From assembly GCA_951804945.1 (NCBI GenBank), contig OX638153.1:52142001-52206000 (forward strand): DNA of 64,000 nucleotides, read 5' to 3'. This document shows positions 21,299-50,707 of the stretch, piece after piece (within the stretch, counting starts at the first letter, position 1; every line of letters starts with the position of its first letter). The notes beneath the pieces are model-generated. The model was not told where the DNA came from and did not search any database. It saw only the letters and a list, made by a program, of their open reading frames with translations. This DNA is from Podarcis cretensis. Its lineage: Eukaryota. The position numbers and the translations under genes are program-made.

Positions 21299-21737
21299 CT
21301 ATTCTAAAGACTTGGTGACGAGTGACAGTGGCTGAGGCTGTGTCCCAGCCAAAGAATTATGGGAATGCAAGGAGGATGTCGAGGGTTGCGCTAGCGAAGA
21401 GGAGGACGGCGCGGACTGCGGTAAAGTGGCAGACTGATGGTCCAGTGCCCCGTTCTGACAATTACTAGCAGGCAGACCGCTGGATTTGCTAGTGGAGCTT
21501 TCAGTCAGGGCTATGGAGGACGGCGGGGGCGGCATCATCGAGAGGTGTGAGAGTGGGTCGGGTTTCAATGTGAGCGAGAGAGGTTGGGTTTGTTCAGTCT
21601 GTGGTTTTGAGTCTCTTGTGGGGGAGGCTAGCATGTTGGGAGAAGACGGTGGAGAGTCTAGTAGGCTTCCATCTGAAGAGGGTGGGCTGACGCAGCTGCC
21701 TTCACCTTGTATGTAGCGAACGCACTTTTTTTTTCTC
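21299..21737 (-). CDS. TCF7L2: TCF7L2 exon 17 coding part. Long E-tail RRKKKCVRYIQGEGSC...PLSLT...PLSLVTKSLE* (two CtBP-binding motifs); medium tail GEKKSAFATYKVKAAASAHPLQMEAY* in a second frame (stop 21658-21660)
   Basis: Acceptor tatttctag|GAGA; ORF 21299..21634; both frames translated by hand. Confidence 0.97.
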
Positions 21738-22008
21738 CTAGAAATAGGGAGAGAGTAATCTGTGAATGAAGGGCAAAGACACTATTTGGAGGGGGAAAAT
21801 AATAACCCTAAAGCAAAGAGCCATCAACCAACTATGCCGGGCTCTGTTTAGCTATACCCAATTATTATAATGGTGCTGTCTACCTCTGGACAACGATTAT
21901 GGAATCCGTCTTTCTCCTAACTAGCGGAATTTGCGCTTTGTCCCATTTAGGTAATTTTTTATTTATTTTAAAAGCCATCAATTTTATGTTCTTTTAGCAC
22001 CAGGTGAA

Positions 22009-22199
22009 TTTATTCTTAGCTTTTACATTCTCGTTCCCCTACAAACCAAAATATGGCAGATACTTCCTCTCAGTTGGCACCAAGCATTCTGAAAGACTGA
22101 CTCTGGAGTCTCGCTTCTGGAATATCTCCCTGCCTGCCTTGGAAGAAACCCCACCTTTGCGACCAACTGTAGCCGAGGATCTACCACTCCTGCTTGTTT
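22009..22199 (-). other. Candidate additional TCF7L2 exon (alternative terminal exon, or 45-nt cassette 22155-22199)
   Basis: Acceptor ctaaacag| after ~150 AG-free pyrimidine-rich nt; 53-codon open frame from phase 1; AATAAA at 22009-22014; internal AAG|gtgggg donor. Confidence 0.5.
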
Positions 22200-23224
22200 C
22201 TGTTTAGAACCACACCGTGTGAAAACAAAAACAAACAAAAAAATCAACGTCACACAGACACAAAAAAGAGGAAAGAGTAACAGGAAGAATAAAAGTGGGA
22301 AATGAAGGAAAAGGAAGATGAACAGAAATACCGTCCAAATTAACAAGAATAACTGGTTGTATAACCTGCAGGTTGTGGATTATCACACATTCATTTATTT
22401 TATTTTATTTCGTAAAGGGTGGGGTGGGAGAAGGGATCGTTTGGCTTCTACTTTAATTTATAGAAATTAAAAGAACTTCAAAAGAAAACTTAAATCTTGG
22501 TTAGGCGTGGAGTGTACAAACAAAGCAACAACAGGTATCATTGTAAAGAGAAACAATCAGAAAACGGTTAAGAATTTCACAAAAATTATCAATGCTATTA
22601 AATCAGGCCACTAGGCACCCTGGCTTATCCAACTTACATAAAGAACAACATCTATGCATTGCACCTACTGCCTAATATTCAGAAGACACGTCTAGTGGCA
22701 GAATAAAAATATTAGGCATACAATGAATGCGTCCTCTGGAGCAGTTTCCCACAGGGCAAACAGATTCTAAAAACCGGTCACAGCAAACACGACGTTTTGA
22801 TCTTTTTCATTTTTGCCCAAAGCACTCATGTTGGAGTAATACAAGGCACCTTTCTCAACTGAAGTTCACGTCTGTTAGCATGAGACTCTCAGCTGAGGCT
22901 GAGAGGCAAGTAATCGTATGTGGCCAGTTGACCCTGTGTTGAAACTGACCAACGCCCCCATCAGGTGTCAGGGCTTAAGTGATTGATTCCAAGCTGACCC
23001 ATATGTAGAATTATAAAGGTCAGCTGGCGCAATTTTCCACTGGTATAATTATAAAAGTCCAGTAAAGTAACACTATCACCCAGTCATCTGTAATCTGAGA
23101 GTTAACACTTTCAAATCCAAGTGAGTGGACTATGTCCACTTCAGAGGGCATTCCACCCAGCATTAGTTTCATGTCACAATCTCCATTTCGCTTCACTGAT
23201 GCTCTGTCAGTGCACCTTTAATGA

Positions 23225-23370
23225 TACATTTGCACTTTATTCTATGAGGTCCCAGGTTCAATCCCTGGTATCTCCAGGTAGGACTAGGAGAGACCTCTGT
23301 CTGGAAGCTGCTGCCAAGGCAGTGTAAACAATACTGGTCAAAATGGAGCAAATTGTATAAGGCAGCTTCC
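23225..23370 (+). mobile_element. Old tRNA-derived SINE relic
   Basis: B-box-like ggttcaatccc followed by a ...tataaggcagcttcc tail; related relics near 41010-41170 and 42560-42680. Confidence 0.55.
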
Positions 23371-25800
23371 AAATTTAGCTCTTATCCCCCCCCCCTTTGA
23401 ATTGTTTTTAACTTTTTATGCTTTTATGAATCATTTTTTAAAAAAATCATTTTAATGTTGTAAACTGCTTTGATATGCTCTTAGGACTTAGTGGTATATA
23501 AATATTTTTATAATAAATAAATAGAATGGGTCACATTTTGGAAAGGATTAGCTAGGAAACCCAAGCAACTTGCTCTTGTCAATTCCTAAAGTTTTCTGGA
23601 GCAGAACAGATTAATAACTTTTCCCTTAAAAAAAAAAAAATGAGATTAAGGTTCTGCCCCACGTTCCACACAGCAAAGTCAATTGTTAGGGCAGTGGAGA
23701 ATTTTAACCACATTAGCCTGCTGATCAATACATGCTAGAAACTAAGACAGCCATGCATGTAAAACCTTATGAATTAAAGCAACAAAGCACAGAGCAGAAA
23801 ATAAAAGGAAAGAGAAAGTGTGAGATGGCAAGCAACAGCAAACCATGCTTTATTAAGGCAAGTTAAAAGATAAAAAAGAGTAATTGGTGGGCTCTAAACA
23901 GAACCTTGCTAGAAGCCTCCTACCTAAAGTAATAAAAACTGGAAATCTATTAGCGAGAAATTGATGTAGTCCACTGGCCTGAACTATTTCATGTTCTTTA
24001 TGTCTTACTCTTTAATTAGTCCCTTTAGGCAGAAAGGAGGCAATGTTACCATATCAACAGTTCAAAGCAGCATTTTTTTTTTTACCAACCCATGGGAAAT
24101 AAGCAAGATTATATTAACAGAGTGGTGCTAATATTTAGGAGATCCCATTATATGTTCCACATCGGCATGCAAGGTACTATTATCTTGCCTTACAGATCAG
24201 CGTTTTCCAAATAGCACACAGAGCTCTACCTGTCAATGCCATGGGGACCTTCTGAATCAGTCGCCATGCTGTTGGTGGGAGGCAGTGGGAGGCTCTGGCA
24301 GGCCATGCAGGACAAAGGATAGAGGAGCATGTGTGTGCATGCATACACTTCATGGATCAATGGATAGGATCTCTAGATGCTAACCCCTCTCACCAAACTC
24401 AACTTCACAGATCCTTGCTCAAGGATTTGGTCATTACAGACATAGCCTGCAATGGTAAGCCCATAAAGAAGCCAACAAGCTTCAAGATGGGTTCTTGTTC
24501 TGAGGTGCTGAAGAGAACTATACATGTCTGCGTTACCAGTGTTGTCCCTAATAGGATTGGGATCAGTGCCCAAATTCAGTTTCCTCCACCTCCCTGACAC
24601 CCACTCTTCTTTACAACTAAAGGATTTCCCTACAGCATCGGGCCAAGAAAACCCAGAACATGCGATGGCAAAATGTAGCGTCATTACTGAAAGTGGTGTT
24701 TCGGTTGTTACTGTTTGCTGCCGTTCATTTACAGAAATCACTTCAAAATCAGAATCAGTCTCGTATGGTTCAGGCAAATCAGTTTTATATAAAGGACAAG
24801 AGAAACTGATGTTTCTTAGGACATGTGTGATTAGTGTTGCATCACAGTAGGTCATCAGCATGAGGCTTGTAGAAAACAAGTAGTAAGCCCAGGGTAGTAT
24901 GTAAAAAAAAAAAATTCAGTGCTGAGAAAAGCTGAATTCTACAATAATTAATAAATACAGACCTATTTTCTTATCCTGAACAGTTTATTTTGTGAGTTAT
25001 GGCAAGGGACAAAGTGCTATGCAAGCCATAAATGTATTTTCCTTCTCTGGTCAACATTTGGAAATTCAAAATGTTGGCAGTGATTTTCCTGACCATAAGG
25101 TCCAGGAACTTGATTTTTTTAAAAAATAATCTTACAACTTTTTAATTCAGCACTCAACAAAAGTTTCTGTGCTTACACAGAGCAGCCACAGAACTGTGAA
25201 ATATAAACACAGCACTAATAAGTCATGGAACATGCAAAGCGCTCTCTCTCTCTCTCTCTCTCTCTCTTTGCACTTTAGACCTAATGGATTATGGGCAAAT
25301 TTTTTAGCTCCAAACCATGTTTAGATTAATTAATTGAATAATTAAGGTGTCCCTGAGCCCAGTGGTAAATGTCTCGTACATATATGCTTTAATATAGTGT
25401 AGATGACATACCATGAAGCAAATACTGGAATTGAAACCCCAAAGCACTTTATTGTTCAGCTAGTTATGATGGCACTGGTAACAGCTATAGAAAACCTATC
25501 TAAAAGCATTATACCTAATTTAACTGACCTTTAAAGTATTTAACTCTATGTTCTAGACAGTACTGACCTAGGTATGATACACACATGAAGTGTGGGCCAT
25601 GATACTTACCTATCCTCACAGACTAATGCAAATTTGGAATATTAAGTACTAATTAATACTAATATTGTCCCAACTGTCCTCATTTTACTCTCAGTAGAGT
25701 TTTGCTATCAGAAATCAAAAACTATCTTGGGTTTGTGGGATGCCCTTGCCCAATCATGTCCAGTATTTGCTCCTTTACTGAACTCTGCAATGTATCATCT

Positions 25801-26064
25801 AGAAGAAGAAGAAGAAGAAGAAGAGTTTGGATTTGATATCCCGCCTTTCACTCCCTTTTAAGGAGTCTCAAAGCGGCTAACATTCTCCTTTCCCTTCCTC
25901 CCCCACAACAAACACTCTGTGAGGTGAGTGGGGCTGAGAGACTTCAAAGAAGTGTGACTAGCCCAAGGTCACCCAGCAGCTGCATGTGGAGGAGCGGAGA
26001 CGCGAACCCGGTTCCCCAGGATTACAAGACTACCGCTCTTAACCACTACACCACACTGGCTCTC
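25801..26064 (-). mobile_element. Young tRNA/CORE SINE (Squam3-like) with (TTC)n tail
   Basis: Minus strand begins GAGAGCCAGTGTGGTGTAGTGGTTAAGAGC with A box and B box (GGTTCGCGTCTCC), then a CORE-like body and (GAA)n at 25801-25824. Confidence 0.85.
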
Positions 26065-26933
26065 TATCCCCTGATGCAACACTAAGAAAAACAAAACACT
26101 GGAGTCAAGCAGAAAGAGTGAGGGAGAGAAAGAGAGAAAGTGATGACCTACAGAGTTTCAAGTCAACGTTTATTGTAACAGTTTGTTTTAAAAAAATTTT
26201 TTGCAGTGTTAATATGCATGCTCTGTAGCTTCAAGAATGACATTTTAAAGATCCTACCGCAAAGCTTTTAGAACTAAACTGAAATTATGTTAAGCTGAAA
26301 ATGCTATTTTGTATTAGAGAAAATAGTTTGTTTCTCTCCACACACAATTCAATGATCATTTGACTGAAAATACTACAGATCATGTAGCAGATCCTCTTTA
26401 AATATGACTTGAAAACAGTTAAATGTAGTTTTAAATCAATAAAATACTGGCTGCAGTAAAAAGGTAATAAAAGAGGCAGATGCTGGAGACAGGCAGCTAG
26501 AGGCAAATCTGATCCTCAAAATACATCCTATTGGGCTCCCTTGATCCCAACCTCCTTCCCATGCACAATTAGGCACCTTGGTCACTTTCGACCAAACCAA
26601 GAAACATACAAAAATGGTCTTTAATCTCATTTTCCTCCCAGGGCAAAGAGTCGTGCACAAACCAAGTCACAGGTGAATATGGCAGTGAGCACCTGAGGTG
26701 CCCCAAACGAAGCCTTTGACAAAGTATTTATTACTGTATAGCCTTCAAGACAGATGGCTAGGGATGCCTTTGTTTATGTTGCAGTGACCAGATGTGTGGA
26801 GCCAACATTGCTGGCCTCTATCTCAGTTCAAAATAGTCCCTTTACTGATAAGGGATTTAGAGCATAATTCCTACCTTCCACCAGCATTCTAGTTTTGACA
26901 AATATAAAAATGGCCGCCTATGTCTCTATGTAC

Positions 26934-27091
26934 CAGTGGGGGGTGCAGGGGGGGCCGGCCGCACCGGCCGCAACATCTGGGGGTTAGGGTTAGGGGGTGC
27001 AAATCCACGGGTTAGGGGGTGCGAATCCATGGGTTGGGGGCGCAAATTACTTGCCTTGCCCCGGGTGCTGACAACCCACGCCACGCCACTG
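26934..27091. mobile_element. G-rich hAT MITE containing TTAGGG units
   Basis: CAGTGG...CCACTG ends; perfect 8-bp TSD CTATGTAC at 26926-26933 and 27092-27099. Confidence 0.88.
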
Positions 27092-27581
27092 CTATGTACT
27101 AGAATAACTGCCAGATAAGCTTAGTAGTGTTAAGAGGAATTTCTCTCTCTAAATGAGTTGTCTCATTTTTAGAAAGCTAAAGTTGTAATCTGGCTGTTCA
27201 AATGTTTCTTGAACTTGTAATTTCCAAAAGGTATTCAATAATCTGCATTGACAATGACCTGTGCTATTTTGCTGCTTCTGTCACACAATCACAGTGCTTA
27301 CGCATGCATCTGATGGGAAGTTACAGAGTTTAGGTGGAATGCTGTCCTTAAAGGACAATGCATGAACTTTATCTAACAATTAGATGTACAGTACGTTTTC
27401 AATCCATGTGTATAGCTCGGAATCACAAAACTAACAGAATTGGCATGCATATAATATGAATAACTGCTCTATTGTCTAAAAAAACAGAATGAAGCACATG
27501 GTATGGGTGTGAATCAGAGGGAAAGGTGAGGAGGGGAGCACTACATACAGAAAAGAGTGTGTGTTGGACTGAGATACCTAC

Positions 27582-27606
27582 CATCATAATATTCCAAATT
27601 CAAAGA
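27582..27606 (-). CDS. TCF7L2: TCF7L2 alternative microexon 16 (25 nt, '13b'): TCTTTGAATTTGGAATATTATGATG
   Basis: Acceptor tctctgttctgatccaagcag|, donor ATG|gtaggt; length, position and sequence match my recollection of the human 25-nt exon. Confidence 0.85.
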
Positions 27607-28402: not shown

Positions 28403-28475
28403 CTGCACGGTTTGCACCATAAACTCTGTCGGTCAAGCCCGAACAATGCCCGACACTTCTTTGGAGTATTTGCAT
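28403..28475 (-). CDS. TCF7L2: TCF7L2 alternative exon 15 (73 nt), C-clamp CRALF: [24 protein letters not shown]; after exon 14 it reads [14 protein letters not shown] (stop 28433-28435)
   Basis: Acceptor gctaacag|ATGC, donor GCAG|gtatac; same length as and paralogous to exon 14. Confidence 0.96.
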
Positions 28476-28770: not shown

Positions 28771-29108
28771 ATGTATGTGGAACTTTCCAGAGAGGAGGGT
28801 GGGATTGTGTGTGCAAGCCTAGGCTGATGCTGTCTTACAGTGGGAATTTTCCAGCTAGCGGCAGTGTGCAGGTGGGTGGAGGAAACAAAAATGAGGGGGG
28901 GGGGGGCGGCAGAAGAGAGCGAAATCCTTTAAACAGAAAGAGATGATCATTCATGGCAGCGTCCCACTCCCTTGTGTCTTCTAGATCACAACACAGAGCT
29001 ACAAAGCAACAAAGCAGGAGGAGAGGGAGGGGAAGGGGGGAAGTACCAAATAAACCAGCTGCAAAACCAGCCATAGCAAGTCGGGGTTGGGGGGGAGACT
29101 ATACACAC

Positions 29109-29181
29109 CTGCAGGGGCCGCACCAGTTATTCTGTTGATCAAGGCCAAAGCGCGCTCGGCATTTCTTAGGAGCGCTCAGGT
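29109..29181 (-). CDS. TCF7L2: TCF7L2 alternative exon 14 (73 nt), C-clamp CRARF: [24 protein letters not shown]
   Basis: Acceptor cattcag|ACCTG, donor GCAG|gtgtgt. Confidence 0.96.
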
Positions 29182-30314: not shown

Positions 30315-30365
30315 CTGTAATCGGAGGAAGTGAAAGGCAAGGATTTAGGAAACATTCGCTGTGTT
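30315..30365 (-). CDS. TCF7L2: TCF7L2 alternative exon 13 (51 nt): EHSECFLNPCLSLPPIT
   Basis: Acceptor tttttttcag|AACAC, weak donor ACAG|gtgcta; peptide matches the known cassette exon. Confidence 0.95.
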
Positions 30366-30896: not shown

Positions 30897-30945
30897 CATT
30901 GGTCTCTCCTGGCTGTTTGTCCCTTTTCCTTTTCTTCTTTTTGCC
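30897..30945 (-). CDS. TCF7L2: TCF7L2 exon 12 (49 nt), basic tail/NLS: GKKKKRKRDKQPGETN
   Basis: Acceptor tttcattcag|GGC, donor AATG|gtaagt. Confidence 0.97.
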
Positions 30946-49640: not shown

Positions 49641-50707
49641 CAAGAAGTATTGTGGGTAACCAATAGACAATCATACCTCATTACAATAATTAAAAAATAC
49701 AGCAACATGCAAAACAGCATCCTCATGAAAGCTACACAACTTTTTCTGATTGAGGTTTGTCTGTGTTGGCTGGTCCTTTTCATCTGTCTTTCAAATGTAT
49801 CCACTGAACGGGTAAGTTGTTATTTGGGGTGTGAGTTTTTCTTGAAAGGTTACTCTGCTAAATATACTCACAGACCATCTTAATACAGAGCAGAGCCCAT
49901 AAATGGTTAAAATAATAAAAATACCAGGTGGACAGTCCTATCTTTTAAAGGAATTTGATGTTTATGCTCTTTGGCTCTTCAAAAAGTTGCATGGGGTACA
50001 AGAAAAGTTATCTCTCTGAAGAAAAGGGGGGGGGGGAATGATAGTTGTACATTAAAATGTCTTTGAAATACCCAAACAGTTATTTATTATGAATTCTGTA
50101 AAATCTACTCCTGCATACAGAAGATATGTAGGTAGCCCATCAAATGACAAGACATTGTAAAAGTCCTACTACAATATAGAAACCAAAGGTATATTGGTGT
50201 TTGTTTGGATAACTGTCACAGGGAGAACAAGAGGCTAGTGATTCTATTTTCCTGCTATTATTTTCTTCCTTTGAAGTGTGAACTTTCTGAAGCATAATCA
50301 GGATGTGTTTTCTTAAAATGCAGTTTTCCCCCCCTAGGGATCACACATTTTGTCTATAAAAATAAGAAATAGGCCGATAGGACCAGGAAAATGAATAGAA
50401 TAGTGTACCACCTGTAAAAGGAACCACTGTTTCCAGGTGGCCACATAAAGGGCCACAGTTTCCAATTCTGGAAGTATATTTGAGCTGTATATACTACAGT
50501 ATAATAGTATAGTGATAGTACTTTACTAGGCTGATATTTTTTCAGTGCAAACAACCTTTCTCCCATTTCAAAACCAAAAGGTTGCAGGGACATAGGGAAC
50601 CTGCTACTTAAAATGGGTTACATAATAAAGGAACTTATTTGAAGCTAAAATTAGATTAATAAAGCCAAACAGAATGAAAGGAGGGGACAACACCACAAAT
50701 CAGGGGG

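Follow-up and report, generated by a model that had tools for sequence, protein, structure and literature searches.

The 45-base element that lies between exons 16 and 17 of TCF7L2 in the lizard Podarcis cretensis is best explained, with a probability of roughly one half, as a cryptic exon that splicing usually passes over and whose acceptor would be masked by a predicted RNA hairpin. It is the annotation that points to skipping. This reading is favoured by the weak acceptor, the hairpin, the lack of the exon from all TCF7L2 proteins compared and the missing places for five of its six predicted products in the isoform series of Podarcis muralis. According to the proposed mechanism, a UUUG tract would fold onto the AG of the acceptor and the beginning of the exon during RNA synthesis, the hairpin would block U2AF binding, and the upstream exons would join exon 17 directly. 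Rare inclusion transcripts would use the donor at 22154 and would therefore give no 53-residue tail. Inclusion from exon 12 or 13 would lead to an M-type protein, 15 residues longer, and inclusion from exon 14 or 15 to an S-type protein in which the C-clamp is cut and whose transcript is predicted to escape decay.

The C-terminal exons of TCF7L2 determine whether this main Wnt effector retains its C-clamp and CtBP sites. Whether the element acted as a cassette or as a last exon, the product would be a C-clamp-truncated or C-clamp-less TCF7L2, belonging to the already-known M and S classes. If used, the candidate exon would be one more route to such proteins, and the functional gain would be modest unless inclusion were high or tissue-switched. 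If the exon is real, its control would be of more interest, namely a compact hairpin in which the pyrimidine tract is paired with the acceptor itself; if it is never used, the candidate is an ordinary pseudo-exon. The most far-reaching version, which seems improbable to us, is a hairpin-gated, unannotated exon with a distant branch point. It would provide lacertids, and perhaps squamates more widely, with a tissue-specific C-clamp cut or with an early mRNA end and a new basic tail, thereby retuning the choice of Wnt targets.

Splice signals of the candidate exon

The window, i.e., the whole 64,000-nt stretch of DNA that was analysed, holds the 3′ part of TCF7L2 on its minus strand, in a host genome of 1.5 Gb. 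Its exons match P. muralis TCF7L2 X1 with 97-100% identity where the alignments stop at exon borders, and one annotated P. muralis tail is slightly unlike that of the window. An earlier note on this DNA had placed exon ends at 30897, 30315, 29109 and 28403 and the start of exon 17 at 21737, and a coordinate check agreed with all of them (Table 1). The candidate exon starts 5,382 nt past exon 16, and exon 17 lies 417 nt beyond its internal donor. According to the available text of PMC9303524, the C-clamp is completed by a motif that lies where the last exon begins. The start of exon 17 in the window also carries a tandem acceptor (TAG, then GAG) and a run of nine A residues (21735-21740, minus strand); frameshifts in the exon 17 A run are known from human tumours, as mentioned in the accessible part of PMC2847248.

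Table 1. Features of the candidate exon and neighbouring TCF7L2 exons (positions in the window)
Feature	Position	Strand	Remarks
Exon 12	30897..30945	-	49 nt, basic tail
Exon 13	30315..30365	-	51 nt
Exon 14	29109..29181	-	73 nt, CRARF C-clamp half
Exon 15	28403..28475	-	73 nt, CRALF C-clamp half
Exon 16	27582..27606	-	25 nt
AG-free U-rich zone	22202..22352	-	151 nt, 74% pyrimidine
Possible distant branch-point adenosines	22340..22341	-	predicted, about -141, near the 5′ end of the zone
Predicted hairpin	22187..22241	-	24 bp, 6 G-U pairs; inverted repeat
Candidate acceptor AG (CAG)	22200..22201	-	exon start 22199
Candidate cassette exon	22155..22199	-	45 nt
Stop after entry from exon 14 or 15	22181..22183	-	26 nt before cassette end
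Candidate donor AAG/GTGGGG	22149..22157	-	GT at 22154; top GT/GC site between the acceptor and exon 17
52-codon frame and stop	22039..22197	-	needs entry from exon 12 or 13 and the donor at 22154 ignored
AATAAA	22009..22014	-	TGTA upstream; A-rich, not U/GU-rich, downstream
Second, weaker donor GAG/GTAGAC	21878..21886	-	GT at 21883; 92nd percentile
Exon 17 (canonical last exon), 5′ end	21700..21737	-	

The acceptor named in the earlier note, with the exon starting at 22199 after about 150 nt of mostly pyrimidines free of AG, is present, and the preceding AG lies at 22354. No other N-free zone on the window's gene strand is as long as this one (83 T, 29 C, 22 G and 17 A). The background for chance statistics was the window together with 200 kb of adjacent DNA in which exons 1-4 lie, 261 kb in all. 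In this background, zones of at least 150 nt precede 3 of 17,156 sense-strand AGs, the candidate's being the third longest, and zones of at least 140 nt precede 5 of these AGs versus none of 18,224 antisense AGs. Of the two sense-strand zones that exceed the candidate's, one precedes the real exon 2 of TCF7L2. The acceptor of exon 2 (L020:5971, minus strand), an AAG, follows 155 nt free of AG; exon 2 is itself a candidate distant-branch-point exon. Because 5.9% of shuffles of the zone's own composition are also free of AG, U-richness accounts for most of the effect, and the strand excess of U-rich zones may reflect general intron composition.

Donors and acceptors were scored with approximate consensus tables and not with MaxEntScan. 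On this scale, the last 14 bases of the candidate acceptor are weak, at the 77th percentile among AGs of the locus. Some real acceptors are equally weak, which counts against the skipped-exon reading: the proximal acceptor of exon 16 reaches the 80th percentile and that of long exon 9 the 72nd. Most constitutive ones reach the 91st to 99.8th. Across the acceptor AG, the GC content rises from 0.32 to 0.54, with a pyrimidine-to-purine step at that point. The GC content of the 45-nt candidate (0.51) is unexceptional among 16 YAGs with long pyrimidine-rich zones.

In addition to the adenosines listed in Table 1, branch points are predicted at 22319, 22250 and 22244, and the zone contains 11 loose branch-point matches that span positions -151 to -5. 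The candidate resembles the human long-zone exons with distant branch points described in PMC1431707, being preceded by 151 pyrimidine-rich nucleotides with branch-point-like adenosines near their 5′ end, whereas those exons are confirmed and the candidate's branch points are only predicted, with closer ones at -45 and -51. In its available portion, that work counts 165 exons in human that follow zones of at least 150 nt and reports that only between a half and a fifth of zones of at least 100 nt mark a distant branch point. A distant branch point serving exon 17 itself was also considered and rejected, since many AGs intervene.

Both donors proposed in the earlier note, AAG/gtgggg at 22155 and GAG/gtagac at 21884, exist. 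The GT at 22154 scores 9.6 bits, which is the 99.5th percentile of 13,920 GTs; the real donors of exons 12, 14, 16, 15 and 13 score 10.0, 9.9, 8.0, 4.7 and 4.0 bits, respectively. YAGs with an AG-free zone of at least 80 nt and 70% pyrimidine number 16 on the sense strand versus 2 on the antisense strand, and the candidate is the only one of the 16 with a donor of at least 9 bits within 30-250 nt. Two of the 16 belong to known exons (7 and 9), both of which fall below the 9-bit donor cut. Among 7,595 YAGs, a donor of at least 9 bits follows in 5.6% of cases within 30-250 nt and in 1.0% within 30-60 nt.

These figures bear on the doubtful reading that the site has no role in splicing. The element would then be a U-rich tract of low complexity with a short inverted copy of a UUUG repeat at its end, the AG would be the start of the purine arm, and the donor would be there by chance. 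Such a view is consistent with the share of AG-free composition shuffles given above and with the finding that, of the 15 other YAG zones that are long and rich in pyrimidines, 13 lie at no mapped exon. It is opposed by the rarity of the combination, since 242 kb of sense strand contain a single instance of a zone and YAG with a top-0.5% donor 45 nt away, and the antisense strand contains none. Other long pyrimidine-rich AG-free zones that end in YAG at no mapped exon are found at window position 50646 (minus strand, 116 nt), at L018:6667 (103 nt) and at L014:3524 (126 nt).

Because a strong donor lies 45 nt into the exon, the signals match a 45-nt cassette better than a last exon. The earlier note had called such a cassette frame-preserving. 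This holds for entry from exon 12 or 13, where the M tail gains 15 residues, but not for entry from exon 14 or 15, where a stop is met inside the cassette; the short frame that the note had described for the latter entry does end after five codons. The decay rule has a 50-nt limit before the last junction, as stated in the part of PMC13187750 that was available. The stop lies inside this limit, and an S-type protein is therefore predicted.

A regulated cassette would use the same zone, YAG and donor. In this second reading, which we consider unlikely, the 45-nt exon is real and restricted to a tissue or stage, its branch point is distant, and the hairpin is opened by a protein or by splicing kinetics. 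It would mimic exon 16 by converting the long forms with a C-clamp (E) into truncated ones (S). Its place in the alternatively spliced 3′ cluster of TCF7L2 is in line with this, and so are the proximity of the stop to the last junction (less than 50 nt) and the observation that human zones of at least 150 nt more often precede cassette exons (32.5% vs 19.8%, in the accessible part of PMC1431707). UG-type tetramers are likewise enriched in the zone (7 vs 1.8, P 0.014, for one of four motif sets tried). Repression by PTB finds no such support, as composition explains the count of PTB-type motifs, which does not exceed that in shuffles (P 0.71). Rbfox motifs are absent between 21738 and 22700.

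Predicted structure over the acceptor

The hairpin, which is absent from the earlier note, is predicted to pair the UUUG-rich tract with the AG of the acceptor and the 13 exon bases that follow it, burying the nearby U-tract. In a 71-nt window picked after the fold had been seen, the local energy is -20.7 kcal/mol (z -3.6; 1 of 200 shuffles). The same folding gives -0.3 to -11.2 kcal/mol for 12 of 12 real TCF7L2 acceptors. Among YAG windows, 15 of 2,299 with matched GC content fold as well as the candidate, and 601 of 7,742 do so without GC matching. The signal is weaker in longer windows, with z -2.2 over 101 nt and -1.1 over 261 nt (22100-22360). In a 260-nt context, the AG is predicted to be paired with a probability of 1.0 and the 15 exon bases after it with one of 0.97, values unsurpassed among 13 sites; paired AGs are also predicted for two real exons, 11 and 13 (0.94 and 0.99).

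Another way to read the stem is as an inverted copy of a UUUG repeat that arose by chance. The best-folding GC-matched control is a simple-repeat hairpin, which speaks for the reading without a splicing role.

RNA structures that hide acceptors are known, for instance at the intron 15/exon 16 border of F8, as described in the available section of PMC11802352. In both cases, a local structure is predicted over the pyrimidine tract as well as the 3′ splice site; unlike in F8, the lizard fold is a prediction and the exon itself a candidate. A search of Rfam with 21740-27600 gave one match, far below threshold and outside the candidate.

Long reading frame and AATAAA signal

The headline of the earlier note was an alternative last exon encoding a new 53-residue tail. 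Its elements are in place: the frame runs for 52 codons past the junction residue to the stop at 22039-22041, and AATAAA is present at 22009-22014, with two more hexamers at 21967 and 21963. This reading would involve splicing to 22199, reading through the donor and cleavage after AATAAA, so that the 53-residue tail would be gained and exon 17 with its long 3′ UTR lost. Besides the frame, stop and hexamer, a TGTA just 5′ of the hexamer is in its favour.

We nevertheless judge it the weaker reading and very improbable. A frame of at least 52 codons follows 6.7% of 7,040 intronic YAGs by chance, and the AATAAA density of 0.93 per kb corresponds to a chance of about 9% within any 100 nt, so that the long frame and the hexamer are ordinary. 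No U/GU-rich element follows the AATAAA at 22014, where the sequence is A-rich. U1 suppresses nearby poly(A) sites, and the strong internal donor at 22154 would compete. In addition, 3′ RACE in human tissue gave no shortened 3′ UTR, according to the part of PMC2748888 that was available.

The tail peptide, whose homologues the earlier note had suggested looking for, found none in three protein searches, which weakens the last-exon reading further. One search returned 10 candidates, none with E of 1 or below, and a second returned no candidate. The third gave 3 matches, all to unrelated repeat proteins, and another search gave self-matches only. Among the matches listed in a metagenome scan were two contigs of 62% GC, with a 50% match over 30 residues, which were set aside.

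The candidate shares some features with physiological cryptic last exons (bioRxiv 10.64898/2026.01.30.702498), being unannotated, intron-derived and possibly protein-truncating. As reported in the available text of that study, such exons are poorly conserved and occur in normal vertebrate tissues, which lends the last-exon reading some plausibility; TCF7L2 is unnamed in its main text. Those exons, however, are RNA-detected and transposon-rich, whereas the candidate is single-copy in the searches made and closer to a cassette.

All searches run found the region in a single copy. Matches in its own genome are to itself only, in a search that skips very common words, and an origin from a transposon was rejected (0 matches in about 260 kb vs 5 for a SINE control). 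The latter is a SINE-like repeat in intron 16, at about 25830-26070 of the window.

Isoform records and known systems

To compare predicted isoforms, 310 proteins were assembled from the best 120 of 3,529 matches to exon 9, 3 proteins from the peptide search and the listed cluster members (up to 15 per cluster, 30 look-ups). Fifteen lacked exon 12 and were set aside. None of the remaining 295 TCF7L2 proteins contains a five-residue word of the phase-1 frame in its last 260 residues or terminates in the peptide of the phase-2 frame. The candidate exon is thus absent from all the database proteins in this check, which the earlier note had proposed. The absence, in a set that includes a lacertid series with exon 16 forms, argues against a regulated cassette, and it is also what a site without a role in splicing would give.

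The isoform series of P. muralis points in the same direction. Its consecutive isoform numbers have lengths of 533, 515, 503, 492, 491, 491 and 486 aa; numbering is assumed to follow length order, a rule obeyed by all 16 isoforms seen. The six products predicted from the candidate, if the same N-terminal half is assumed, would measure 518, 506, 501, 495, 489 and 478 aa. Among the coding records of the series, there is no slot for five of these six lengths, and 478 aa falls among unseen numbers. The missing lengths include the 518 and 501 aa expected from the last-exon reading. The series is not blind to minor events, because exon 16 forms and the use of an unusual acceptor in intron 14, at 28854, are both recorded in it.

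No description of the candidate exon was found in the literature consulted. PMC9303524 lists 14 C-terminal TCF7L2 isoforms, with no exon at the candidate's place in the available text, and its Figure 3 covers reptile- and bird-specific exons. Six peptide words gave 0 matches in its three supplements, a weak negative since cells cut at 400 characters hide the C-termini. The mouse exon lists in the accessible parts of PMC2847248 and PMC12166992 are without the candidate exon, and PMC6908431, as far as its available text goes, deals with zebrafish exon 5.

A close known counterpart is exon 16 of TCF7L2 itself (human 13b, TCF7L2-NE), a short optional exon just 5′ of the last exon, according to the available portions of PMC2847248 and PMC2830605. 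Entered after a C-clamp exon, exon 16 stops translation and costs the protein its CtBP sites and the last part of its C-clamp, as the candidate would; forms with exon 16 are brain-enriched in human (PMC2830605, same portion). However, exon 16 is 25 nt long, frame-shifting, supported by RNA and present in lizard, bird, amphibian and mammalian records, whereas the candidate is 45 nt long, symmetric, 5.4 kb further on and represented in 0 of 295 proteins.

Another relative may be human brain-tumour exon 16′ (PMID 15547706), known here only through one sentence in PMC2847248, which describes an extra exon named after exon 16 and absent from healthy tissue. The comparison extends to that one-sentence description; the two exons may or may not be orthologous, which makes the novelty of the candidate exon provisional.

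Orthology to unusual bird exons was considered as well. The candidate site ranks 21st of 540 AGs for a bird 43-nt exon and 78th of 540 for an eagle exon, so that neither orthology is supported, and this lack of a match is a further point against a regulated cassette. The same mapping method, used as a positive control, placed the eagle tail at 28854 with a score of 21.9, versus 7.9 for the next of 540 AGs.

Several other C-terminal variants were seen in these records. The acceptor at 28854 (minus strand) is a second one in intron 14; RefSeq P. muralis X19 (P0135) makes use of it, and golden eagle X17 (P0164) shows a counterpart. Use of this acceptor resembles an S-type event conserved between lizard and bird, is unmentioned in the literature consulted, and is better supported than the candidate exon. 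Between exons 12 and 17, Cinclus cinclus X4 (P0118) and Athene noctua X8 (P0120), from two distant birds, carry a related insert of 43 nt, which leads to a long tail without the CRARF/CRALF part and has no clear match in lizard introns. Finally, in 17 of the 295 proteins (e.g., P0079 and P0089-P0098), exon 12 runs on into exon 17 in the long frame, for which a shift of the acceptor is apparently responsible. These 17 proteins have tails with CtBP sites and no C-clamp, and those checked include birds and a crocodile.
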